From positions 2,162 to 46,330 of the forward strand of contig CAXTTL010000009.1 of assembly GCA_964247135.1 (NCBI GenBank): 44,169 nucleotides of DNA. The letters are read 5' to 3'. The stretch's first letter is position 1. Every line of letters begins with the position of its first letter. Below, piece by piece: positions 1-10,382 of the stretch. This stretch comes from an uncultured Deinococcales bacterium. GTDB lineage: Bacteria; Deinococcota; Deinococci; Deinococcales; JAAFIG01. A model generated the notes under the pieces. That model was not told where the DNA came from. It did no database searches and saw only the letters and a list, made by a program, of their open reading frames with translations. A program made the position numbers and the translations under genes.

Positions 1-195
1 TAGGGCGCGTTCGATTCGGACTCCCTCGAGCAGTTCGATGTCTGGTTCATCGGCTCGGGTGTGCGCTCGAATGCCTTTCGCGGTTTGGGCGTTGTCCGTC
101 CAGATTTGTTCGAGGTGAATTAAGGCACACTGGCGCGGGCAATACGCGTAGTGCTGCAAAGCGGATAAGGCGATAGACTCGAGTTCGGATTTCAT
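1..195 (-). CDS. cas4: CRISPR-associated exonuclease Cas4, N-terminal 65 codons (truncated by window edge)
   Basis: Not in the ORF track. Hand translation from ATG at 195: MKSELESIALSALQHYAYCPRQCALIHLEQIWTDNAQTAKGIRAHTRADEP..., the Cas4 N-terminal 'SALQHYxYCPRQ' Fe-S motif. TAATG overlap with the cas7 stop. Confidence 0.93.
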   Translation of the reverse strand, partial: MKSELESIALSALQHYAYCPRQCALIHLEQIWTDNAQTAKGIRAHTRADEPDIELLEGVRIERAL

Positions 196-1346
196 TACAC
201 GAGCCGCGTAAGTGTTACGCCCTTGAATCCTTGCGTTTCGAGAGAGATTTCTTTTCCTACACCAACTTCAGGGAGTTTGATAGTATTTTTGTATTCATCA
301 AAGTTGCGTGGTGAACCGCCAACTTTTTGAATCTGAATCAAGTCAAAAAGCTTGTGAGCGGCTGCATTTCCAAGCTTGCTTTCGTGGCTAAACACGTAAA
401 GCCCTCGGCATTCCATTTGCCCTCTCGAGGCACTACGATCCAATCCCCACATCATCTCAAGTGCCTGCCAGAACAACTCGAGGTCTTTTGGGGTGACGGC
501 ATGATCCATACCAAGGTTTGCTAAATGCGGTGAGTAGAAGCCATGTCCAACATACAAACCGTAATGGATAAGAGCTTTACGCCCGATCTCAGTTTCTTTA
601 CGTTTTGCATCCTCCGATTTTGTAATTGCAACGCGAGTGATGGTTACATCTCGAGTAAGAACAGGGTCGATACTGCGGGAAAAGGTAAGTTGCATTGGTC
701 CACGTACCTGACCAGCATTCAATCCTGTAGACATGACTGCACCGAACATTCGTACATCATAAAAATTTTCGCACATCCAACGTCGCGCTTTGTCTTCATT
801 GGCACGACTTTTTTCTGGTTTTCCTGCTTCTTTGGCAATGTCGTTAATGAACTTTTTTACTGATTTATCCAAATCGTCTATCTCGTCAAGCGCCGTTTTC
901 AATTCATCACTTGAAAGTTCGCCTGTGTACACGAGTAAAGCGGATTCAGCCTCGTCGTCACTGTCTTCAAAGCTGAAGCCTTCGGGTAAGCTAGAGGCAA
1001 CTTCCCGAAGTTTTAGTAAGAGTTCCTTGGCTACTTCTTTCGTAACTGTTTTGCCTGTCGGGATACCTTGCTCAACGTAAGATCGTTTGATTTGTTCGTT
1101 CAATATCCCCCGATGTTCGATAAAAATTTTGTACTTGGCTTGCATGGTTTCGTCCATTTCCTGTGCCGCCAATGCCACAAAGTTCCGAATCTTGCGTTTG
1201 AGTGCGACATCCGTCACCAATCCTTGCAAGGTTTCTGGGTCTGTGCGCGGCATGTTGCCACCATCTGGGTCGCCATTTGGGTTGCCATCCGTCACATCAA
1301 AAATCAATACGAAGTCATGGCGTTTGCTGGGGTCAGTGTAAATCAT
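195..1346 (-). CDS. cas7: Type I-C Cas7/Csd2 backbone subunit with a long acidic insertion
   Basis: Motifs GNPNGDPD..NMPRTD, LVTDVALKRKIRN, FYDVRMFGAV, GQVRGPMQ, DRSASRG, HESKLGNA; position after cas8c. Confidence 0.96.
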   Translation of the reverse strand: MIYTDPSKRHDFVLIFDVTDGNPNGDPDGGNMPRTDPETLQGLVTDVALKRKIRNFVALAAQEMDETMQAKYKIFIEHRGILNEQIKRSYVEQGIPTGKTVTKEVAKELLLKLREVASSLPEGFSFEDSDDEAESALLVYTGELSSDELKTALDEIDDLDKSVKKFINDIAKEAGKPEKSRANEDKARRWMCENFYDVRMFGAVMSTGLNAGQVRGPMQLTFSRSIDPVLTRDVTITRVAITKSEDAKRKETEIGRKALIHYGLYVGHGFYSPHLANLGMDHAVTPKDLELFWQALEMMWGLDRSASRGQMECRGLYVFSHESKLGNAAAHKLFDLIQIQKVGGSPRNFDEYKNTIKLPEVGVGKEISLETQGFKGVTLTRLV

Positions 1347-1804
1347 GGTTTAACTCCTGTCGGGATTTGAGAAGTCACAGTGCTCTGGTTGCGACGGGCA
1401 ATCATTTGTGCGCGGTTTTCAGCACGTCGGTGGTAGAACCCAAGTGCAAAAATGCCTTGCTGTACGATTGAAAGTGTTTTCGGAAAGCGTGGGGTATCGT
1501 CTGTATCTTGCTTGAATGGCTTCAGAATGGTTTCAAGTTCTTGTTCAAGTGCGTTCCAAGTTCCTTTTTTCTGATTGCGAAGTTTGCCCAGGTGCGCTCG
1601 AGCGCCCTTGAGAAGTGGTGCAAATGCAATAGCAGGAGTGCTTGATGCTGAGCCGTAGTACCTTTCTACGATTGAGGCATTGACTTTTCCCAGGGCAGCT
1701 CGCTGAATTGCTTCGAGTTCAGCAAGCAAACATCCGCATTGGTACGCGATTGCATCATCACGTTCAAGGTTAGGCGCGGGCGTGAGTTTCTCGAGATCGT
1801 CCAT
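1343..1804 (-). CDS. cas11: Cas11 small subunit, predicted internal in-frame translation product of cas8c (153 aa)
   Basis: In-frame ATG at 1804 (MDDLEKLTPAP...) preceded by GGGAGAATCAC (SD-like GGAG), immediately before the conserved C-terminal helical domain. Internal Cas11 translation is established for type I-C. Confidence 0.75.
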   Translation of the reverse strand: MDDLEKLTPAPNLERDDAIAYQCGCLLAELEAIQRAALGKVNASIVERYYGSASSTPAIAFAPLLKGARAHLGKLRNQKKGTWNALEQELETILKPFKQDTDDTPRFPKTLSIVQQGIFALGFYHRRAENRAQMIARRNQSTVTSQIPTGVKP

Positions 1805-3253
1805 GTGATTCTCCCATTCGGGTTGAGTAGAAAGCGCTAGTTTGATGAATGCGGCTTGTGCGTGTGTGACATGCTCACGCGCACCGTTTTGCATAACTGT
1901 ACCGACCGCGCAACGCCGCGCAACCTGAGCCAACCATTCGCTCGAGATCACACCACCTTGCAGCGCAATACCAACCAAATGACTGATGACTCGAGCAGGA
2001 ATTTCTTTACTTGCATCAAATTTACGAATCTTGTACGAACGTCGGTAAAGCGCTTCCGCAAGCCGATACATACCGAGTGGATCATCGGTCTGACCATATT
2101 CATCCACGATGTTTTGCGCTCTAAACCATCGCTCTAGGTTACGGGCTGCATCTGGAACGGTAGTTTCAAGCCAATTTCGCACAACTACTCGTGCGCCTGA
2201 TCCAGACAAAGCCAGTGCATAGAAAGCGTTTGGGCGTTGACCGTGCGCTTCTGCGCCAGTGAAAATACTGATAAGCATTTGTTTGACCTCAGCCGCTTTT
2301 GGCTGTTGGAGTGGCTTACGTGGGTTGAATATACTTTTTTCCCGTGTCCAAAAGACGTATACAACTGATCCAATATATAACCTAGAATCCTCGATTGAGA
2401 GCAATTGGTTAAGTGCTTTAGTAAACCGTTCAGCAGCATCACGTGATATTGGCGAGGTCAGTGAATTCTCAAGCGCATAAGAAGAAAAAGCACTCCCTTG
2501 AGCAGAAACAAAAGATTTTCGGGCTGGTTCACCTTTTGATTTTCTGGGTATACCATTGATTTTTCCTGGCAAGCGTTTTTCGACTAGACCTATATTGCCA
2601 GTAACCAAGCACATCATCGATGTCTCACTGTTTTCGACATTGCCCTGCGCCGAATTTGCGGTATATCCAGCCCAAAACAGTTGTGCAGGGACGGATTCGA
2701 TAGCTGGAATAGATTCCCCTACTCGAAATGTCACTGTGTCAGCCCCATCAAATGTCACAGGTAATTTTGATTGTAAAATTGCGGGATCGAGACTCAAAGA
2801 TTTCAGGAAATTGGCTATCAATTGAATTTCATTGTTACTCGTTGAGTCTGCATATTCCTCAGCAATCCAATTCGCACATTTCTCAGTTAATTGAATGAAT
2901 GCTTGATGTTGCAATTTGACTTGCTCAAGTGATCCATTTTTTTTGCGGGGTATTCCCAACGCATACTCGCCCGTATCAGCCAGTAATTTTGGACGGATCG
3001 ATCTTCCTGTCCGATCACGATACGGAACAACTAGTTGTATATCTTCGTCGATAGAAGTAAAGCTCTCGAGTTGAAGCGCAAAAGTTGAAGAATCCGCTAC
3101 AACCAACTGCATATCTTCATTGATAGGAGTAAAGTTTTCAAGTGTTCCGCTGATTGAGAGATTAACATACCAGCGAATTCTCGTTCCTGCATACATTTCA
3201 GGAGGCAGATTCATTTGTGTATCGGCGTATTCTTTTAGTTTTGCAAGAATCAC
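1343..3253 (-). CDS. cas8c: Type I-C large subunit Cas8c/Csd1
   Basis: MILxxLxEYA start, LLADTGEYALG, CLVTG, AFSSY, FYALALSGSGARVVVRxW; C-terminal AYxCGxLLAxLE..Q..A, ERYYGSASSTP, QQGIFALGFYH. GTG start overlaps the cas5 stop. Confidence 0.95.
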   Translation of the reverse strand: MILAKLKEYADTQMNLPPEMYAGTRIRWYVNLSISGTLENFTPINEDMQLVVADSSTFALQLESFTSIDEDIQLVVPYRDRTGRSIRPKLLADTGEYALGIPRKKNGSLEQVKLQHQAFIQLTEKCANWIAEEYADSTSNNEIQLIANFLKSLSLDPAILQSKLPVTFDGADTVTFRVGESIPAIESVPAQLFWAGYTANSAQGNVENSETSMMCLVTGNIGLVEKRLPGKINGIPRKSKGEPARKSFVSAQGSAFSSYALENSLTSPISRDAAERFTKALNQLLSIEDSRLYIGSVVYVFWTREKSIFNPRKPLQQPKAAEVKQMLISIFTGAEAHGQRPNAFYALALSGSGARVVVRNWLETTVPDAARNLERWFRAQNIVDEYGQTDDPLGMYRLAEALYRRSYKIRKFDASKEIPARVISHLVGIALQGGVISSEWLAQVARRCAVGTVMQNGAREHVTHAQAAFIKLALSTQPEWENHMDDLEKLTPAPNLERDDAIAYQCGCLLAELEAIQRAALGKVNASIVERYYGSASSTPAIAFAPLLKGARAHLGKLRNQKKGTWNALEQELETILKPFKQDTDDTPRFPKTLSIVQQGIFALGFYHRRAENRAQMIARRNQSTVTSQIPTGVKP

Positions 3254-3936
3254 GTAACACCTCCATACAAGTCTTGCGGAACGTATAAAACGCCATTCTC
3301 GAGTTTCGCTCGGAAGAATTTTGGTTTCGCTTGCCCCTCTACCACGCGTGAGCCGTTTTCATCCTTCAAAATGTAATTTAGTTTTCCGCTCTTAATAGGC
3401 ACAAATTCCAGATCAAAGAGCATCAGACCAAATTCATCGGTAATGGATTGCGCTTTTTCAGTTCCGTCTGGCTTCTCGAAATATCCTGTAAATTCTCGAG
3501 TCCCCAAATACGGTTGATGATGACATCGCCCTCTTTCTACACGACGGTTAAATTGAGCAATATATTTCATTGGATGTACACCAGATGCAATTGCATGAGG
3601 TCTTAGATCAAGTGTGGCTTTGATGATATACGCCACATCGCGCAAAGCAAGCGTGTGCCGTTGAGCGCGGTCTTCGTCTGCGTAGTAGTTGCGTTCGGAT
3701 CGTGTTTGAACTTTGTTGATTTCATTTCTCAAGATTGATGCACGACGAATCGGATTAAGGACGTGAATCTCGAGAACGCGCCATCGGAACTCAGGCTTCC
3801 AGAGTACCGCCTCAAGAATTCCTCGTGCTGCACTGGGTGTCATGATTTCGTAAGTAACTCGTTCCGTCCCAAACTCAGGTCGGGTGAAGCACGCAAAATC
3901 GCCTCGGACTTTGATTTCAAGCGGTGGACTGTTCAT
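3250..3936 (-). CDS. cas5: Type I-C Cas5 (Cas5c/Cas5d; crRNA-processing subunit)
   Basis: GDFACFTRPE..ERVTYEIMTPSAARGILEAVLWKP, RNE, RAQRHTLALRDVAYII, QPYLGTREF; SD AGGAGAG upstream. Confidence 0.96.
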   Translation of the reverse strand: MNSPPLEIKVRGDFACFTRPEFGTERVTYEIMTPSAARGILEAVLWKPEFRWRVLEIHVLNPIRRASILRNEINKVQTRSERNYYADEDRAQRHTLALRDVAYIIKATLDLRPHAIASGVHPMKYIAQFNRRVERGRCHHQPYLGTREFTGYFEKPDGTEKAQSITDEFGLMLFDLEFVPIKSGKLNYILKDENGSRVVEGQAKPKFFRAKLENGVLYVPQDLYGGVT

Positions 3937-3949
3937 AATGTTCTCTCCT

Positions 3950-6247
3950 TTAAAAACCAGCTAAATCCTCCGCAGACCATGCAGACAGTTCAATACCAGT
4001 GATGTCGTCATAACGGAAAATGGGCCATTCATAAATCTCTGGTGCAATCTCGGTTGTGATGCTTTGCCATTCTTTAAAGTCATCTTCGCGCAAGTTCACA
4101 AGGTACGGTTGTAAGTTGCGATGGTCGCTAAAATGCAATCCTCGAGCTTGTATTTTTTGAATCAATTTCTTAGCCTCCTCATCAAATGGAATCACGACAG
4201 GGGTGGTTTCATCCCGAATGAGTCGAGATTCTGATGCTACCTTGGGGAAATTCAGTTCCTCGCGTAAGCCTTGAACGCCGTACTTATCGGACGGAACGGC
4301 TTGATAAAGTCTGCCGTAATACGCATCAAAAATCGCTGGACTATTTAAATCAATGCCTTTTTCAAGTTGACATTTTGCTTCAGCCAACGCAATGGCATAT
4401 TCACCTTGCGGTGACCCTCCGCCCTCTGGAACAAAAATCACTACCCGCCCTGGTATGGGTTGCCCATTGCGCTCGAGTTTGCCGTTTCGGTTGCACCGAC
4501 CAGCCGCCTGTACCATGCGCTCAAGTGGTCCGAGAGCACGGTACACAGCAGGGAAATCCAAATCTACTCCTGCTTCAATCACTTGGGTGCTTATCAGACG
4601 GACGGGAAGATTATTCTCGAGGCGTTCTGTGATCTTCTCGAGAACCTGAGAACGATGCCGACCGCAAAGCAATGTAGATAAGTGAAACAACGAATCAAGT
4701 TCGTCACAGGCTTTAAGAAGTGGTTTGAGTTTTCCGAGCAATTTCAACGCATCTTTTCGGGTATTAAGAACTGCTAACACCTGGCGCTCTGGTTCGTCTG
4801 CAATGCGTTTCGCTAAATCTTTCCACGGTATCGGCTCGAGGTTTGACGAGTTATATTCAACTCTTTTGAGGCGACTAAAATGGTCACTTGCCATCTCTGG
4901 CGAAATGATGTCGCGGATTGTGCCAGGTTTAAAACCTGTGAAGTACCGATCTTGACGCTCGAGAGCCGGTTGTGTGGCTGTGCATAGCACTACACTTACG
5001 CCGTATCGATTGGTTAATTCTTGCAACACATCAGTGATTGGTGTCAGAAGACCAATGGGCAAGGCTTGTACTTCATCCAGCACGATTACGCTACGGGCAA
5101 TGTTATGAAGTTTGCGGCATTTCGATGGATAATTCCCGAACAAACTTTCAAAAAGCTGTACCGTGGTCGTAACAATCAATTGTGCATCCCAGTTTTGCGT
5201 GGCAAGCCTAGCCACAGCCTGGGCTTCGTCAATTACTTCAATCTCGGCTGATGTGAGCTTATCGCGTTCTGCTTTGGTTTCGCGTTTGATTGCACTGTGA
5301 TGCTCAAGAACTGCGTTCAACCCAAGGTTTCGGAACACTTTTCGGTATACTTTTGCGTTTTGGTCAATAATGCTCGTGTAGGGTACAGCAAAAATCACGC
5401 GCTCAAATTGATGAGTCTCTTGGTGCTGTAAAGCATGAGCAAGAGCAAATGCAAGTCCAGACAGGGTTTTCCCACCACCAGTCGGAACCGTTAATCGGAA
5501 CACACCAGGCTTGCATGTCGCAACATTCAAACACGCCTCGTAAACCTCTGCCCGAACTCGATTTACGTCTGTCTGGAGAACTGTACTTGCCGAAGATTTT
5601 TGAATCAAGACTTGCTGATGTCGTTTCAAACGCAGCATATATGATTCAAGAGGAATGCTTTTTCCACGCTTGGCAAAAGCCTCTGGATTGAAATGGTTTT
5701 CCGTATCGAGATAATCTGCATCTGTAAGGCTCGAGAATAAAAATCGCACAAACAATTCATACGCTTTTGGTTCTTCAGGTAAGTTTTGGTAAAGCAACTC
5801 AATATCTTCAGGAGGCTCGAGCGAGCCAAGTGCTATGCCAGCAATTGGCTCAGTTGTTTCCCAAGTCTGACGGTCTTTGGGATCATTAACTTTCCGGTAC
5901 AAATCACTCTGATTATGTAAACCCGCATGGTGTCCCGCAATAATTGGTGCAAGAAGACTTAACTTTTCCTCTGCATAAATTGCCCCGTGAATTGCATGGG
6001 GAACACTTTTTGTAGGTGCGGTTTGACCATTTTTATCTGCTTGAAAACATTGATCCAAATACTTTTGGAAATCTGGATTGAATTTACCGAAATCATGCCA
6101 TAAGCCTGCCACATGGGCAAGTTGACCACCATTAAATTTATCAGCACGTTCTCGAGCCATCTCAGCAACACACAATAAATGTTTCTTGAGATCGTGCCAT
6201 TCGTCCGTTCCTTTTCTTGGCGTGTGTGCCACAAACTCTGGTTTCAT
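3950..6247 (-). CDS. cas3: Cas3 HD nuclease-helicase
   Basis: HD domain (LWHDFGK, IAGHHAGL, LTDADYLDT) followed by SF2 helicase motifs VPTGGGKT, DEVQ, TAT, STQVIEAGVDLDF, QAAGRCNR. Confidence 0.97.
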   Translation of the reverse strand: MKPEFVAHTPRKGTDEWHDLKKHLLCVAEMARERADKFNGGQLAHVAGLWHDFGKFNPDFQKYLDQCFQADKNGQTAPTKSVPHAIHGAIYAEEKLSLLAPIIAGHHAGLHNQSDLYRKVNDPKDRQTWETTEPIAGIALGSLEPPEDIELLYQNLPEEPKAYELFVRFLFSSLTDADYLDTENHFNPEAFAKRGKSIPLESYMLRLKRHQQVLIQKSSASTVLQTDVNRVRAEVYEACLNVATCKPGVFRLTVPTGGGKTLSGLAFALAHALQHQETHQFERVIFAVPYTSIIDQNAKVYRKVFRNLGLNAVLEHHSAIKRETKAERDKLTSAEIEVIDEAQAVARLATQNWDAQLIVTTTVQLFESLFGNYPSKCRKLHNIARSVIVLDEVQALPIGLLTPITDVLQELTNRYGVSVVLCTATQPALERQDRYFTGFKPGTIRDIISPEMASDHFSRLKRVEYNSSNLEPIPWKDLAKRIADEPERQVLAVLNTRKDALKLLGKLKPLLKACDELDSLFHLSTLLCGRHRSQVLEKITERLENNLPVRLISTQVIEAGVDLDFPAVYRALGPLERMVQAAGRCNRNGKLERNGQPIPGRVVIFVPEGGGSPQGEYAIALAEAKCQLEKGIDLNSPAIFDAYYGRLYQAVPSDKYGVQGLREELNFPKVASESRLIRDETTPVVIPFDEEAKKLIQKIQARGLHFSDHRNLQPYLVNLREDDFKEWQSITTEIAPEIYEWPIFRYDDITGIELSAWSAEDLAGF

Positions 6248-7260
6248 TCGTATCTCCTCAAAAGTTCCCGTGCATCATTTAACCAGAGTTCACGCAGGTT
6301 TTGAGGCTTCAAAATTTCAACATTCGCGCCCCAACTTCTTGCCCAGACCAGCACCTCGAGCGGAATACCGTCATTGTTAACACCTGCTTGGATTTGTATG
6401 GTTCTCGAGCCGTCTGTGTGATGCTCGAGGGTTCGCATGTTTGGGTAGCCGCCCTCTTCGAGACGGTGAATCACCGATGCTGCGAACCGTAGTGTTACCG
6501 CAATACTTTTTCCGTCAGAATCGCCCATGATTCCCCAGGCGTTGGAGAGGTATTTGGCTGGGTCAAAATCGCTGGGGATTTCGTAGCTTGCGTCCAAGAG
6601 TTTGGCTTCGCGCATTCTGGAGAGTTTGAAGGTGCGTACCGCGTTTTGAAAACCGTGTTCAAAGCCAATCACGTAATGATCCAGGTTGGTACGAGAAATT
6701 TCGCAGCAGTAAATCGAGACAATGTTTTCGCGCCATGTGCCGCTGCCGCCTGGTTTGAGGTATTCAAATCTGATTTGGCGTCGTTGTACCCAGGCGTCGT
6801 TGATGTACTCGAGGGTGCGGGAGAGTTGAATTGGACGTTGGGTTTTGTGGTTTTTTTGGCTTTGCTCGAGGACGTGACGGATGTGATCTGGAAGCTTTCG
6901 TGTCAATTGTTCGACCATGCGGTGATAGATTTGGCTTTTGGTTGGTGCGTGATGGTCAAAAAGCCGTGCGATGGTGTGAACCGCCAGCACTTCTTGTTGA
7001 TTCAGTCCGTGTTTTTCGGGGATGTGGTACTTCGGGGTTTTGTCGTCACTTTTCACAATGCCGCGTTGCAGTTTTTCTTGGTTTAAGAATTGAAGGTCTC
7101 GGCGTAAGATTCGTTGCGCACTCTCGAGTTTGATGGTTTCTTGTTCGATTTCATCGGCGTAAAATTTTCGCGCCAGTTGATTCATTGTGCGTGGTTTGTC
7201 GCGTAGCAGTTGCTCGAGTGCGAACAACCGTTCGACTTTGTTCCATGAAAGATCAGACAT
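6244..7260 (-). CDS. HTH-WYL-WCX transcriptional regulator
   Basis: N-terminal wHTH (KVERLFAL..QRILRRDLQFL), WYL core (RRQIRFEY..HYVIG..VRTFKLSRM), FDPAKYLSNAWGI, C-terminal WARSWGANVEILKPQNLR. ATGA overlap with cas3. Confidence 0.93.
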   Translation of the reverse strand: MSDLSWNKVERLFALEQLLRDKPRTMNQLARKFYADEIEQETIKLESAQRILRRDLQFLNQEKLQRGIVKSDDKTPKYHIPEKHGLNQQEVLAVHTIARLFDHHAPTKSQIYHRMVEQLTRKLPDHIRHVLEQSQKNHKTQRPIQLSRTLEYINDAWVQRRQIRFEYLKPGGSGTWRENIVSIYCCEISRTNLDHYVIGFEHGFQNAVRTFKLSRMREAKLLDASYEIPSDFDPAKYLSNAWGIMGDSDGKSIAVTLRFAASVIHRLEEGGYPNMRTLEHHTDGSRTIQIQAGVNNDGIPLEVLVWARSWGANVEILKPQNLRELWLNDARELLRRYE

Positions 7261-7266
7261 GGACTC

Positions 7267-7298
7267 AGGTTACTCATTGGCTGTCGAGAGGTCGTCGA
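7267..7298 (-). promoter_or_regulatory. Putative leaderless promoter of the WYL-cas operon with two 11-bp-spaced direct repeats
   Basis: Minus strand: TCGACGA(7298-7292) CCTC TCGACAG(7287-7281) CCAATGAG TAACCT(7272-7267) GAGTCC ATG. TAnnnT lies 6 nt before the ATG; no SD and no good -35. Confidence 0.55.
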
Positions 7299-7347
7299 AA
7301 AAATTAAAACTTGAATTTAAGACGCAGGTTATTTGCGTGTATCATTG

Positions 7348-8967
7348 TCAATCTAAATTTTGGCGAATATCATTGATCCATTTGCTGTACACGCCTTCGA
7401 GCAATCTGGATTTGTCTTTGGCTCGTCTGGCGTCGTAATGCCACCGCGTGTTATCTTGTCCGAGAATATAAGCTTCGCCTTTGTTTTGAATGCTGTCATC
7501 CCAGCCCAGGCTCTCGCGCAATTGTTTTGTCAATGCCCAAAGTGCTTGTGAGGCAAGACGTTTGTTGTTCGTTTCGGGGTACAGGGCATCAATCATATTT
7601 TCGCTGCTGGCTTGCCCGTTGTGCTCGAGCAGGTAAACCAGCAGTTCTGCGACTTTTGAATTTGATTTAAGGCGAATGCTTTGTTGGTTCACTTCGACCC
7701 TCAGCACGCCCAAAGCCTGAACGTCTATTAAAAGTGGTGTTTGGCTGGGCAGTGACGAAAAGAAATAACCGTGTTGCTCGGCAAGGGCAAACAATTCTGG
7801 GAAGCAATGGCGTTCCTCGAGCACACAAAGTCGTTTCGGGTCAATGTTTTGAAACTGCTCGAGCGCTTGGCTTGTGCGTCCCTCCAGGCGGGCGAGTTCG
7901 GCGTTTAAAAGACTTAAACGTATTTTTGCCTCTCCGTTTTGTGCTGGATGCTCGAGCAGTGACAATTGCTTTTGCGTTTCTTGAATGTCACCCCGTTGGA
8001 GTGAGGTGGCAGCAATCAATATTCGGATTTTATCGGTTTCATCGCTACGGTCAAGCGCTTCCCACAAGAGGTCGAGTGCGGCGTTCAATTGACCTGCACA
8101 ACGCAGCGTGTGTCCTAAACCACACATGGCGGCAATTCGGTCATCACCATCATTTTTGTTGTTGACGTATTGAAGACCGCGCTCATAGGCAAAGATCGCC
8201 CTGGTCCATTGTCCTTGGCTGCGACGCACCGCGCCAATACCACTCCAGGCTCTCGAGCGAAACGCTTTGGCGTCTTGGCGGTTGCTGAGTTCTCGAACGG
8301 TGTAAAAATGTTGTTCGGCTTCGGGCAATCGCAACTCGAGCGTCACCAGTCCAAGGTTGTATTTGATCCAGGCTGCGTAGTACGGATCGTGTTTTAAGAG
8401 CGCATGGGCTTGATTGTATTGGGTTTGCGCCGTGGTCAATTCGTGGTTTAGAAAACAACACGAACCGTATTCCATATGGCAAAGACCGAGTGATCGTCCC
8501 GTCAGCAATGAAAGCGCTGTGGTGAAAGATTGATGCCAACCCTCACGTTTTAAGGCGGCTAAACATTCGCCCTGAATCCGCCATGCCAAACCTGGGTTAA
8601 AAGTTGTTTCGAGGCTTGTGAGGGTGTTGAGGGCATCAAGATACCGTTCCAGTTTGCGATATGCCCAGGCAAGATATGCGGCGGCGTGTTGTTGAATGGT
8701 TTGATTAAAATGCGGCGGCATCTCGAGAATCAGTTGTGGTTCACGTCCGTTGCAGGCGATTTGCAAGCTGATGTTGATCCAATTGGGTTGACAGCGCAAG
8801 GTCACAGGGACGTGTTGGAGTAATTTTGCCAGTACAGCAAATTGATACAGGGTTTTTGCTTTTTCAAAGGCGTGGCAAAATGTTCGCAGTGCCGTAACCC
8901 AATCTTTGTTCTTGATCAAAATCTCAAGGCTCTGGGCATACAGGGCAATGTTCTCCGAAGATGGCAC
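7348..8967 (-). CDS. TPR-repeat protein with C-terminal winged-helix (SARP/OmpR-like) DNA-binding domain; putative transcriptional regulator
   Basis: Serial TPR-like units (AWIKYNLGLV, AWSGIGAVRRSQGQWTRAIFAYERGL, AMCGLGHTLRCAGQLNAALDLL). C-terminal IDVQALGVLRVEVN..KVAELLVYLLEH..MIDALYPE..LTKQLRESLG..Y.L..WHYDA is typical of SARP-type wHTH, but the BTAD is very short. Confidence 0.8.
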   Translation of the reverse strand: MPSSENIALYAQSLEILIKNKDWVTALRTFCHAFEKAKTLYQFAVLAKLLQHVPVTLRCQPNWINISLQIACNGREPQLILEMPPHFNQTIQQHAAAYLAWAYRKLERYLDALNTLTSLETTFNPGLAWRIQGECLAALKREGWHQSFTTALSLLTGRSLGLCHMEYGSCCFLNHELTTAQTQYNQAHALLKHDPYYAAWIKYNLGLVTLELRLPEAEQHFYTVRELSNRQDAKAFRSRAWSGIGAVRRSQGQWTRAIFAYERGLQYVNNKNDGDDRIAAMCGLGHTLRCAGQLNAALDLLWEALDRSDETDKIRILIAATSLQRGDIQETQKQLSLLEHPAQNGEAKIRLSLLNAELARLEGRTSQALEQFQNIDPKRLCVLEERHCFPELFALAEQHGYFFSSLPSQTPLLIDVQALGVLRVEVNQQSIRLKSNSKVAELLVYLLEHNGQASSENMIDALYPETNNKRLASQALWALTKQLRESLGWDDSIQNKGEAYILGQDNTRWHYDARRAKDKSRLLEGVYSKWINDIRQNLD

Positions 8968-8972
8968 GTCAT

Positions 8973-8978
8973 ATTCTA
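8973..8978 (-). promoter_or_regulatory. Putative -10 box (TAGAAT) of a leaderless promoter for the TPR regulator
   Basis: Minus strand TAGAAT-ATGAC-GTG(start 8967); no SD is visible. Confidence 0.5.
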
Positions 8979-8979
8979 A

Positions 8980-9011
8980 GGGTTTGCGGTCATGCGCATG
9001 ACCGCAAACCC
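8980..9011. repeat. Perfect 32-bp palindrome between the peptide ORF and the TPR gene (terminator, stabiliser or operator)
   Basis: GGGTTTGCGGTCATGC|GCATGACCGCAAACCC equals its own reverse complement. Starts 8 nt after the peptide stop; only TT follows on the minus strand. Confidence 0.9.
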
Positions 9012-9019
9012 AGATTTAT

Positions 9020-9151
9020 TCAACCACCGCCAGCGCCTGTTTTTGGATCATCCGCCAAGATCATCGGTGCTGGTTGAACCAAGTGCGCCGTGCTTAACCC
9101 TGCAAGACCAAGAATTCCGAGCACTAAAACCCATGCCAAAACTTTGCGCAT
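9020..9151 (-). CDS. 43-aa small protein with signal-peptide/TM-like N-terminus and polar Gly-rich C-terminus (candidate signalling pro-peptide)
   Basis: MRKVLAWVLVLGILGLAGLSTAHLVQPAPMILADDPKTGAGGG*. ATG at 9151 with AAGGGG SD 5 nt upstream; basic N-region, ~16-aa hydrophobic core, S-T-A possible cleavage site. It is the 3' part of track ORF 9020..9352. Confidence 0.75.
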   Translation of the reverse strand: MRKVLAWVLVLGILGLAGLSTAHLVQPAPMILADDPKTGAGGG

Positions 9152-9216
9152 ACAAACCCCTTCGGCTCGGGCGCAGCCAAGAAAAACGCCCACCCAGACA
9201 TGCTTCAAACGCCGCA

Positions 9217-9242
9217 CGGTGCACAAAGCGCTTTGTGCACCG
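9217..9242. repeat. Perfect 26-bp palindrome upstream of the peptide ORF
   Basis: CGGTGCACAAAGC|GCTTTGTGCACCG; followed by GCATTTTT on the + strand and by TGCGGCGTTTGAAGC on the - strand. Confidence 0.9.
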
Positions 9243-9393
9243 GCATTTTTGAATGTCAGAAGGACTGTTCTTGTCCGAGGGTGATGCTCGAGGTGAGGCA
9301 CTCTTGGATGGGGTTTGATTTTAAACACGAGAATCGCGTGCCCATGCGTCAATTCGTGACGTGCTGATGTGACTATTCAAAGTTCAGGGCATC

Positions 9394-9421
9394 AAAAAAA
9401 TGGCAGCCTTTAAGGCTGCCA
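9394..9421 (-). terminator. Rho-independent terminator after the DUF3224 gene
   Basis: Inverted repeat TGGCAGCCTT-N-AAGGCTGCCA (9401-9421) followed by T7 on the minus strand. Insulates the peptide/TPR/cas region from upstream transcription. Confidence 0.85.
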
Positions 9422-9455
9422 AAAAATAACTTATTCTGAAATTTTTTAAATCAAC

Positions 9456-9848
9456 TCACTCGAGCGCGTACTCAAATTCGTAAGAATGCACACCACCCTC
9501 AATGATGATTTTCATTGTGCCGCAGAGTCCTGTCAATTCATCTGTCCCAGAATCTGGCACAACACCAACCTCGAGTTTTGGCGCACCCCTGTTCATGGTG
9601 CCGGTGTGTTGAAGCACAAAACTGCCCGCACGGTTTTGCAACGTTCCGTTCACCCGTTCGATGGCGACATATCCCGCCGAGCCTTTGACCGCCGTGCCAG
9701 CCGAAAGCATCTCGCCGCGACTGGTGGCTGTCAGGTCGCCAAAAAATTGTTTGTCGATGTCCAAGCGACCAAGGCTGGCATCGGCTGTGGGGTTATTGAG
9801 CGTTAAAGGGCTGATTTTGACTTCAAACGTTCCGCTGGCTCGAGGCAT
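9456..9848 (-). CDS. DUF3224 family protein
   Basis: ASGTFEVK..IDKQFFGDL..GEMLSA..SAGYVAIERVNGTL..GSFVLQH..VVPDSGTDELTGL.G..HSYEFEY pattern; SD AAGGAG. Confidence 0.85.
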   Translation of the reverse strand: MPRASGTFEVKISPLTLNNPTADASLGRLDIDKQFFGDLTATSRGEMLSAGTAVKGSAGYVAIERVNGTLQNRAGSFVLQHTGTMNRGAPKLEVGVVPDSGTDELTGLCGTMKIIIEGGVHSYEFEYALE

Positions 9849-9863
9849 GATGCTCCTTTAAAT

Positions 9864-10382
9864 TTAAATTGAGAGGTATCGTTCTTGCAAAATCTTAAGG
9901 TGATGCCTGACGTGACCGACCATGATGTACGCCAATGCCAGCACCGTAATTCGGTTGTTGCTGGCAATGCCCTCCGCAGTCCAGGCGTCAGCACTCAAAT
10001 GCTTGAACATCAAAACGTTGGCGGTTCGCAGCGCCACAAATTCGGCGCAAAGATCGCCCAGTGAAATCTGATCAAAACCGGCTTGAGCCACGTACTGCTT
10101 TTCATCAAAACCCGAGAGCTGCGCCGTGTCGGCTCGAGAAAACGTAAACGCCCGAAAGGCAAAAACCCGTTCACCGTCGATCAGATGCCCGACCATTTGA
10201 CGGATGCTCCACTTGTCGGCGCCGTAACGAAAAAGGGATTTTTCTTCGGAAATACCGCCCAGCAAGGCTCGAGTTTGTTCGATCTGCGACTCGAGTTCTG
10301 GCAGGATTTCGCTTTCTGGCACGAGTGAAACGTAAGTTTCGTAAAACGGGTTGTACTCGGTTTTATCGGGGCGCTGGTTCAT
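9864..10382 (-). CDS. DinB family protein
   Basis: YGADKWSIRQMVGHLIDGERVFAFRA, GFDE..Y, GHVRHH metal-binding histidines; SD AAGGAG. Confidence 0.88.
   Translation of the reverse strand: MNQRPDKTEYNPFYETYVSLVPESEILPELESQIEQTRALLGGISEEKSLFRYGADKWSIRQMVGHLIDGERVFAFRAFTFSRADTAQLSGFDEKQYVAQAGFDQISLGDLCAEFVALRTANVLMFKHLSADAWTAEGIASNNRITVLALAYIMVGHVRHHLKILQERYLSI

Follow-up and report, generated by a model that had tools for sequence, protein, structure and literature searches.

A conserved cassette of a small ORF and a TPR–winged-helix regulator ahead of cas operons in Deinococcota, and its possible role in peptide-responsive control

We analyzed a 44,169-nt stretch of DNA from an uncultured Deinococcales bacterium (hereafter, the window; assembly GCA_964247135.1, contig CAXTTL010000009.1, positions 2,162 to 46,330), which is part of a 5.09-Mb assembly of 386 contigs that is 84% complete. 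In the window, a small open reading frame (ORF) with a signal-peptide-like N-terminus is followed by a gene for a 539-aa protein made of tetratricopeptide repeats (TPR) and a predicted C-terminal winged helix (hereafter, the regulator), and then by WYL and type I-C cas genes. That this arrangement is a conserved cassette we regard as very likely. We propose that the regulator, together with a WYL co-regulator, activates the cas operon in the manner of a SARP and in response to a peptide. Such a circuit would be RRNPP-like in its logic and outside that family, and we give this reading an even chance of being right. Its narrower element, that the product of the small ORF is the ligand of the regulator, we hold tentatively.

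Small ORF, regulator and cas genes across related loci

The comparison covered up to 20 kb around each of 44 homologues of the regulator gene (the 40 top-scoring and the four of the window's own genome) and of 40 lower-scoring ones. One locus of the second set had no match and one locus held two genes, giving 84 TPR genes in total, all from one bacterial order. A small ORF with a hydrophobic N-terminal part lay upstream on the same strand of 75 of the 84 genes, as found by scanning for stop-bounded frames that end no more than 560 nt upstream and that contain a hydrophobic core followed by 12–60 further residues. An acidic, Gly-rich tail was present at 63 of the 84 TPR loci and ended in GG in 51, compared with 3 of 355 control genes (genes other than the TPR genes, 150 aa or longer, from the first 44 loci). 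This bears out the expectation, from an earlier sequence-only reading of the window, that homologues of the regulator are regularly preceded by a small ORF with a signal-peptide-like start and a D/P/G-rich tail. Ten further small ORFs have variant tails (e.g., PKCC..G and KPC..GC), and two of the 75 candidates, those of L037 and of the C70 paralogue, are probably spurious. Among the cas-linked members the aligned tails give the consensus [A/G]-D-[D/G/E]-x-P-K-x-G-x-G-G-stop. A Lys or Arg precedes the hydrophobic core in 71 of the 75 small ORFs and a site with small residues at -1 and -3 follows it in all 75, as judged by a crude rule that is weaker than a SignalP prediction.

In four orthologues whose regulators are 54–100% identical, the small ORF is always 43 codons long and has a ratio of nonsynonymous to synonymous substitution rates (dN/dS) of 0.17–0.42; it is under purifying selection. 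A chance ORF is ruled out by this ratio, by the fixed length and by the 63 of 84 loci against 3 of 355 controls. The pairing of small ORF and TPR gene persists whatever genes lie downstream, and paralogues within the window's own genome bear differing tails. In the window the small ORF (9151–9020) reads MRKVLAWVLVLGILGLAGLSTAHLVQPAPMILADDPKTGAGGG; it starts ~250 nt past the terminator of the gene upstream, and GAAGGGG stands 7 nt upstream of its ATG. Such ORFs are sparsely annotated: one RefSeq record lists one, with a tail of this kind, as a hypothetical protein of 57 aa, the gene table of an Allomeiothermus plasmid omits it, and Pfam, NCBIfam and PADLOC hold no model for the peptide.

The features of the window are as follows, and those that the sequence-only reading had listed were recovered where it had placed them, all on the minus strand.

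9401–9421, minus strand: terminator-like stem-loop of 9 pairs with a loop of 3, then TTTTTTT; ends the DUF3224 gene and sets the module apart
9217–9242, no strand assigned: perfect 26-bp palindrome before the small ORF; candidate operator or 5' leader hairpin
9165–9198, minus strand: near-invariant 34-nt block upstream of the small ORF, formed by invariant columns of the four-orthologue alignment
9020–9151, minus strand: small ORF of 43 codons plus stop, proposed exported pro-peptide; basic N-terminus, hydrophobic core of ~16 residues, S-T-A before H22, tail ADDPKTGAGGG
8980–9011, minus strand: perfect 32-bp palindrome with 14-bp stem and 4-nt loop, starting 8 nt past the small-ORF stop; read as an RNA hairpin; no T run
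8973–8978, minus strand: -10-like hexamer TAGAAT; the GTG start of the TPR gene follows after 5 nt
7348–8967, minus strand: 539-aa TPR–winged-helix regulator; TPR solenoid at residues 1–400, predicted OmpR/SARP-type winged helix at residues 412–539 (nt 7351–7734)
7281–7298, minus strand: SARP-type box, two TCGAC units 11 nt apart; 3' heptamer TCGACAG 8 nt before the -10 hexamer
7267–7272, minus strand: -10-like hexamer TAACCT, 6 nt before the WYL ATG; putative leaderless start
6244–7260, minus strand: WYL regulator (helix-turn-helix (HTH), WYL and WCX domains); opens the cas operon, its stop overlapping the start of cas3
3950–6247, minus strand: cas3 (HD nuclease and helicase), by Pfam match
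3250–3936, minus strand: cas5 (type I-C), Cas_Cas5d, 6.1e-32
1343–3253, minus strand: cas8c/csd1, Cas_Csd1, 2e-94
195–1346, minus strand: cas7 (type I-C), Cas_Cas7, 4.2e-88
1–195, minus strand: start of cas4, the remainder lying beyond the window edge

The type I-C gene set is thus represented by cas3, cas5, cas8c and cas7, all identified by Pfam, and, beyond the window edge at the start of the same contig, by the rest of cas4, ORFs of cas1 and cas2 size (assigned by that size) and CRISPR repeats.

In 60 of the 84 cases (33 of 44 and 27 of 40) the gene next after the TPR gene, on the same strand, encodes a WYL protein or a WYL-Cas3 fusion, and in three more cases the WYL gene is on the opposite strand. 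The fused form, of ~1080 aa, has the order HTH-WYL-WCX-HD-helicase. The WYL protein of the window matches the WYL (1.7e-9) and WCX (2.7e-9) families and the PADLOC WYL models, and HTH_11 is seen in a fused relative. The genes that follow belong to type I-C in 25 cases and to type I-E in 20, as expected if cas genes regularly accompany homologues of the regulator; the WYL-cas3 link holds even for homologues that are 25–28% identical to the query. In two close orthologues WYL or Cas6 is followed by a DevR-type Cas7 and Cas3, an I-B-like set, and one paralogue precedes Cmr2, Cmr3 and RAMP genes of type III-B. Paralogues that are not linked to cas genes adjoin S8 proteases, BTAD-AAA-TPR STAND proteins, a DUF11 protein and Tectonin-domain proteins, and on one named Deinococcus plasmid the peptide, TPR and WYL genes are followed by no cas genes. 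On an Allomeiothermus silvanus plasmid (NC_014213.1, locus L082), type I-C genes continue directly, without a change of strand, into a III-B module (cmr1, cas10), and both stand behind the one regulator; a single switch may serve two CRISPR types there.

The window's genome holds a further arrangement of small ORFs at G000:C1, ~16.2–18.7 kb (loci L004 and L074), where a paralogous regulator follows two tandem small ORFs whose tails are similar and not identical. Two large secreted-type S8 proteases, one of them with RCC1 repeats, also precede this regulator, and Tectonin-domain proteins follow. By analogy, the tandem pro-peptides and extracellular proteases recall the pro-peptide processing of RRNPP systems.

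Fold and distribution of the regulator

Pfam sees only TPR repeats in the 539-aa ORF (TPR_12, E 7.1e-12), and the protein is predicted to be cytoplasmic, with no signal or membrane segment. An AlphaFold model of the whole regulator, built from a 57-sequence alignment, has a predicted local distance difference test score (pLDDT) of 93.8 and a predicted template modelling score (pTM) of 0.90; it consists of helical repeats to about residue 400, a beta-sheet, three helices and a wing over residues 412–511, and a last helix. The C-terminal 128 residues modelled alone reached a pLDDT of 95.7. Because a whole-protein profile search of the PDB was swamped by designed TPR proteins, the search was repeated with the C-terminal domain alone, which gave weak matches, the top real ones being CarR, EmbR and AfsR. 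A Foldseek search with the model of this domain returned AfsR as the best match (E 7.6e-5, TM score 0.72), followed by EmbR, YycF, PhoP and PhoB, many of the matches being OmpR/PhoB effector domains. Trans_reg_C matched weakly in 20 of 38 C-terminal domains (best E 5e-5), and in the window protein its match fell below the Pfam cut-off. The C-terminus of the regulator is, as modelled, a winged helix of the OmpR/SARP type, and the SARP-like assignment made from the letters of the sequence is supported by AfsR as its closest structural match.

Foldseek with the whole regulator model found only generic TPR proteins, with no RRNPP receptor among the matches listed, a result that does not inform on family. 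No Pfam family pointed to homology with Rap, NprR, PlcR, PrgX or AimR at E up to 0.1, a kind of result in which a weak or missing match is no proof of separate ancestry. BTAD (PF03704) had no match in the regulator by Pfam, and NOD was likewise undetected.

The regulator matches two PADLOC-DB profiles over their full length, PDLC01171 (E 1.6e-117, profile positions 8–501 of 504) and PDLC01092 (E 1.7e-89, profile positions 3–519 of 523). A profile of the C-terminal domain, run against 1.84 billion representatives, retrieved 171 clusters at E up to 1e-10, almost all of them either proteins of 520–600 aa with the domain at the very end or fragments; the family is small and its architecture is fixed. 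Matches to the TPR protein at E up to 1e-3 were found in 105 of 201 sampled genomes of the order, often several per genome and unevenly by family (17 of 18, 14 of 53, 39 of 53, 0 of 23 and 34 of 53 genomes), and the window's own genome encodes four full-length paralogues. Five close loci came from a search with a closer alignment, and the close relatives of the TPR protein belong to uncultured Deinococcales. Homologues also occur on named plasmid records, seven of Deinococcus and one of Allomeiothermus, and three of ten representative clusters looked up bear organism names (Meiothermus, Calidithermus and Deinococcus). Every named carrier encountered belongs to Deinococcota, which confirms the earlier guess, made blind to the source of the DNA, that the host lies outside Bacillota.

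A SARP-type box at the WYL-cas3 promoter

A spacer of 87 nt separates the regulator and WYL genes. It contains two TCGAC units (7298–7294 and 7287–7283) spaced 11 nt apart, and the second begins the heptamer TCGACAG, which is followed after 8 nt by the -10-like hexamer TAACCT (7272–7267) and after 6 more by the ATG of the WYL gene. Promoters of SARP activators carry direct repeats at a spacing of 11 or 22 bp, of which the one on the 3' side is 8 bp from the -10 element, according to the excerpts consulted of PMC10936776. The window box has this geometry. The strict box, NNGAY-N6-NNGAY-N7-11-TANNNT, occurs in 32 of 59 regions upstream of WYL genes, compared with 0.33 on average and never more than 3 in 500 shuffles; in a relaxed form, which tolerates one mismatch in the second unit and a C as first base of the -10 hexamer, the count rises to 44 of 59, compared with 1.24 on average and at most 5. 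(One of the 60 regions had been dropped under the requirement that the WYL match begin within the first 60 residues.) The box was found in none of 40 regions upstream of peptide ORFs and in none of 44 upstream of TPR genes, and the former count rules it out as an auto-induction site of the peptide gene.

These counts have to be read against an unusual sequence background. The hexamer CTCGAG is highly iterated, with 265 copies in the window against 7.7 expected and 33,926 in the whole 5.09 Mb, where a random hexamer would have ~1,240 copies, and it resembles in this the HIP1 element of cyanobacteria. Its abundance inflates chance matches to TCGA-containing motifs, and the box was therefore tested against shuffles and internal controls. 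The exact window form, TCGAC-N6-TCGAC-N9-11-TAnnnT, occurs twice in the whole assembly, once at the window site. The other copy (G000:C18:32132, plus strand) is outside the window in an intergenic region ~25 nt before an SDR-like ORF, and may be a second target or a chance match.

With such a box ahead of WYL and cas3, the regulator would be tied to transcription of the cas genes. The box itself is a new element, a concrete regulatory site whose standing does not depend on the peptide. We consider it likely, judging from the sequence pattern, that the regulator acts at the box, and we infer that the TPR–winged-helix protein binds it and activates WYL-cas3. In three paralogues that lack WYL genes, boxes of the form AAGAC-N6-AAGAC stand before the downstream gene, past the TPR gene, which favors the TPR protein rather than the WYL protein as the binder. 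The repeat unit varies by clade (TCGAC, GCGAC, TGGAC and GTGAC) in a way that tracks the residues of the recognition helix, a correspondence that kinship confounds and that is only a lead.

Pro-peptide, exported product or leader

Our proposal for how the cassette might work is as follows. The 43-aa product, with its Sec-type signal, would be exported and trimmed, and its C-terminal part would be taken up again. The cytoplasmic 539-aa protein would bind this peptide in its TPR solenoid, and its C-terminal winged helix would bind the two TCGAC repeats, which would stand in for a -35 element at the WYL-cas3 promoter, so that the box-bound regulator could recruit RNA polymerase in the manner of SARPs. 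As first product of the operon, the WYL protein may add a second input, an intracellular signal of nucleic-acid or damage type. A peptide signal of population density or infection would in this way govern the expression of cas3 and Cascade. The hairpin past the small ORF would keep peptide transcripts abundant and apart from the probably leaderless transcript of the regulator.

That hairpin is formed by the 32-bp palindrome, which folds as RNA at -32.1 kcal/mol (z -4.97), with none of 200 shuffles folding as well. In the 75% and 71% identical orthologues the outer stem is kept and the center is replaced, in the 54% orthologue there is no hairpin, and more distant loci have hairpins of unrelated sequence, some of them with T runs. 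Where the spacer between small ORF and TPR gene is at least 30 nt long, it folds at z of -2 or below in 36 of 57 cases, compared with 4 of 59 control spacers between TPR and WYL genes; the median distance from the stop codon to the start of the stem is 5 nt, and in 43 of 55 cases it is no more than 12 nt. Structure without sequence conservation implies a role at the RNA level, in termination, attenuation or stabilization of the small transcript. The palindrome is thus more likely an RNA hairpin than an operator, judged by its sequence changes; the operator alternative was rejected as the main reading, on the loop replaced with the stem kept in the 75% orthologue and on the unrelated hairpins elsewhere. 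An Rfam search of positions 7200–9500 gave two sub-threshold matches to small RNAs, both over the terminator of the upstream gene, and left the leader and the hairpin uncovered. The sequence-only reading had listed the palindrome alongside a proposed RRNPP-analogous pair that controls cas genes. That reading is partly supported: the conserved pair, the cas link, the winged HTH and the host have all held up, peptide signaling that depends on density or infection stays a proposal, and the palindrome is better read as an RNA hairpin (36 of 57 spacers against 4 of 59).

Downstream of the hairpin, TAGAAT precedes the GTG start of the TPR gene; orthologues have TACAAT in the same position, and it is kept in one of them despite an insertion of ~150 nt. 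The position of this hexamer suggests a separate promoter and a leaderless mRNA for the regulator. Two other elements lie upstream of the small ORF. The 34-nt block at 9165–9198 is almost invariant in the four orthologues though their peptides are 65–77% identical; it is more conserved than any nearby coding part and can form a short GC stem with a T-rich loop. The 26-bp palindrome at 9217–9242 persists in altered form in the three closest orthologues and is not conserved in the 54% one. Read on the plus strand it resembles a terminator; the WYL protein or some other dimeric regulator may use it as an operator.

Several observations weigh against the proposed peptide circuit. No small ORF was detected at nine of the 84 TPR genes. 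At one of these (L054) the tail motif is out of frame with the hydrophobic part, indicating a frameshift, and the regulator and cas genes are intact; at another (L053) an ORF on the opposite strand takes the place of the small ORF, again with an intact regulator and cas genes. One miss begins at a contig end and has no upstream sequence, and at L038 the small ORF is visible in another listing, the apparent gap of 483 nt deriving from a rough estimate of the start. The remaining five have no small ORF even in a looser listing. Outside these nine, L037 retains a truncated remnant of the motif behind a transfer RNA gene, next to an intact regulator and cas genes. The tail is also unusually conserved across receptors that are only ~30% identical, and the peptides of known RRNPP systems usually diverge fast; this conservation could reflect a constraint other than recognition by the receptor. 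Two contigs of one genome (L072 and L089) encode regulators that are 55% identical and have the same peptide tail. The counts are further weakened by how they were obtained: gene starts were estimated rather than taken from annotation, and the loci come from related genomes and were selected by similarity to a cas-linked query, so that the counts overstate independence. The box is missing from 15 of 59 WYL promoters even in its relaxed form. Finally, production, export, processing, uptake and binding of the peptide are proposed from sequence, as is the identity of the box binder, and the peptide might switch the regulator either on or off.

One of the two regulators at L072 and L089 precedes a type III-B module, and one signal may address two receptors there. 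Co-folding of the full regulator with the 43-aa pro-peptide gave scores of 0.20 and 0.10 against a mark of 0.32, in runs without controls, and weighs on neither side of the binding question. A search of sequencing runs listed no RNA data set and two DNA runs, in which small shares of the sequence words occurred. The genome has 26 matches to the peptide-binding protein family SBP_bac_5, which means that an uptake route exists and is not specific evidence for this peptide.

If the small ORF does not encode a signal, its product could be an exported end product (antimicrobial, adhesive or envelope-related) that merely shares the neighborhood or regulation of a TPR protein sensing something else. 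We judge this unlikely. The peptide is only a candidate ligand of the TPR protein, and some of the family handles secreted products, since the neighbors of non-cas paralogues include Tectonin-domain proteins, secreted S8 proteases and a DUF11 surface-type protein. The box, however, is absent upstream of all 40 peptide ORFs examined, and the peptide is accordingly not an output via the box; the pairing also stays nearly constant while the downstream genes vary among I-C, I-E, I-B-like, III-B and non-cas sets, and the loci examined have no modifying enzyme, immunity gene or dedicated exporter as a regular neighbor.

The main rival to a diffusible peptide signal is a leader that acts in cis. SecM, MifM and VemP combine a signal sequence with a C-terminal stalling motif, and the small ORF could be a secretion monitor of this kind, in which a ribosome pausing at the Pro/Gly-rich end melts the downstream hairpin and lets transcription or translation reach the regulator. 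Export would pull the nascent chain and relieve the pause, and the cassette would report failure of Sec or of the membrane, for example during infection, without any diffusible signal. The signal-like N-terminus and the conserved C-terminal Pro/Gly motif agree with this, as does the stable hairpin after the small ORF, which is enriched over control spacers and begins so close to the stop codon as to lie inside the ribosome footprint; conservation of the tail across distant paralogues would likewise fit a ribosome-directed motif. Against these stand the 16 of 73 loci with less than 30 nt between the small-ORF stop and the TPR start, the close orthologue without a hairpin, and the -10-like hexamer between hairpin and regulator start in four close orthologues, which points to a separate promoter. 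Stop codons are evenly used (26 TGA, 22 TAA and 25 TAG), deep paralogues have quite different tails, and a cis-acting leader would leave the TPR solenoid without a ligand. We consider a secretion-monitor leader quite improbable.

Very improbable, in our view, is an uncleaved membrane anchor that tethers or masks the regulator until envelope damage frees it: the hydrophobic stretch of ~16–20 residues could serve as a signal anchor and the transmembrane anti-sigma factor DdvA appears at rank 29 among structure matches to the full model, but the basic N-terminus would, by the positive-inside rule, turn the tail outward, away from a cytoplasmic regulator that has no signal or membrane segment of its own, and a cleavage-type site with small -1 and -3 residues follows the core in 75 of 75 small ORFs by the crude rule.

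Relation to known systems

With a peptide as the regulator's ligand, the closest parallels are the RRNPP(A) pairs of Bacillota (Rap-Phr, NprR-NprX, PlcR-PapR, PrgX and AimR-AimP). In both, two genes stand side by side: one encodes a small pro-peptide whose N-terminus is signal-like and whose C-terminus is conserved and presumably active, the other a cytoplasmic TPR-type protein with a DNA-binding domain. Tandem duplication of pro-peptides is likewise shared (excerpts of PMC11343458). The differences are substantial: the predicted OmpR/SARP winged helix is C-terminal here, whereas RRNPP receptors have an N-terminal XRE-type HTH or a Rap-type effector domain; the host belongs to Deinococcota, the tail is far more conserved and the output is CRISPR-Cas; and there is no sequence match, nor a fold match among those listed. 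The main text of two large RRNPP surveys, as far as consulted, makes no mention of Deinococcus, Thermus or CRISPR.

The SARP activators (AfsR, DnrI, ActII-ORF4 and EmbR) share the DNA-binding fold and the layout of target promoters, and large SARPs also have TPR sensor domains. In SARPs, however, an N-terminal winged helix is followed by BTAD, whereas here the TPR comes first and the winged helix last (residues 412–539 of 539), no BTAD or NOD was detected, and the partner is a small exported-type ORF, in Deinococcota and with cas neighbors.

As a second regulator of HTH-WYL-WCX type, the WYL protein resembles those that act in defense or damage responses (BrxR, CapW, DdaA, PafBC, DriD and the WYL-Cas3 fusions). 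WYL proteins beside or fused to Cas3 are known (excerpts of PMC4012209 and PMC5529391), as is a WYL activator of CRISPR-Cas in Acinetobacter (excerpts of PMC12392091). Here, in contrast, the WYL gene itself stands behind a SARP-type box and a peptide–TPR pair, which implies layered control. Control of CRISPR-Cas by quorum sensing with N-acyl homoserine lactones is known in Serratia and Pseudomonas (excerpts of PMC5179492 and PMC10013973) and shares the idea that cas expression tracks a signal between cells. It uses global LuxIR-type circuits and small molecules, whereas the circuit proposed here would use a peptide and lie inside the cas locus.

The regulator belongs to a family that has been listed before. 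C3a198, "TPR protein", is cluster 198 in the survey of type III accessory genes by Shah et al. (2019, RNA Biol), with three members and Mrub_1490 as its III-B example (PMC6546367, in the parts consulted); C3a198, PDLC01092 and PDLC01171 are the same protein family as the regulator. The entry gives no function, and the main text of that survey, as consulted, is silent on a winged helix, a partner peptide, a box and the WYL-cas3 genes of types I-C and I-E, the supplements lying outside the search (PMC6546367). The presumption that such a module was undescribed thus needs correcting for the TPR family, which appears both as C3a198 (PMC6546367) and in PADLOC-DB; for the peptide partner, the winged helix and the box, the sources consulted gave no earlier description. 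Searches of the literature for these three and for peptide signaling in Deinococcota, including the terms of a preprint on CRISPR-linked genes, returned no description, most subscription papers lying outside their coverage.

Signaling through cytoplasmic TPR receptors is regarded as a trait of Bacillota. The broader claim, to which we give slightly less than an even chance, is that Deinococcota independently evolved a peptide-receptor class of their own, combining TPR, a C-terminal SARP-type winged HTH and a Sec-exported pro-peptide, and that most of its members are wired into I-C, I-E, I-B-like and III-B loci through a SARP box before WYL-cas3, with immunity switched by peptides that pass between cells or report infection. 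If true, this second, non-homologous solution in another phylum would change the Bacillota-only picture, would be the first peptide circuit dedicated to CRISPR-Cas, and would supply a search pattern for other phyla (a small exported ORF, a TPR protein and a DNA-binding domain). The long-open question of how type I cas genes are naturally switched on would also become directly testable, with a defined box, regulator and candidate ligand and with culturable, non-pathogenic carriers in Allomeiothermus silvanus DSM 9946 and several Deinococcus species. Independently of the peptide, the box would give a function to a listed, uncharacterized family of CRISPR accessory proteins.

Upstream of the cassette in the window lie genes for DUF3224 and DinB_2 proteins (9456–10382, minus strand), which are syntenic in two other loci from the same family of genomes.

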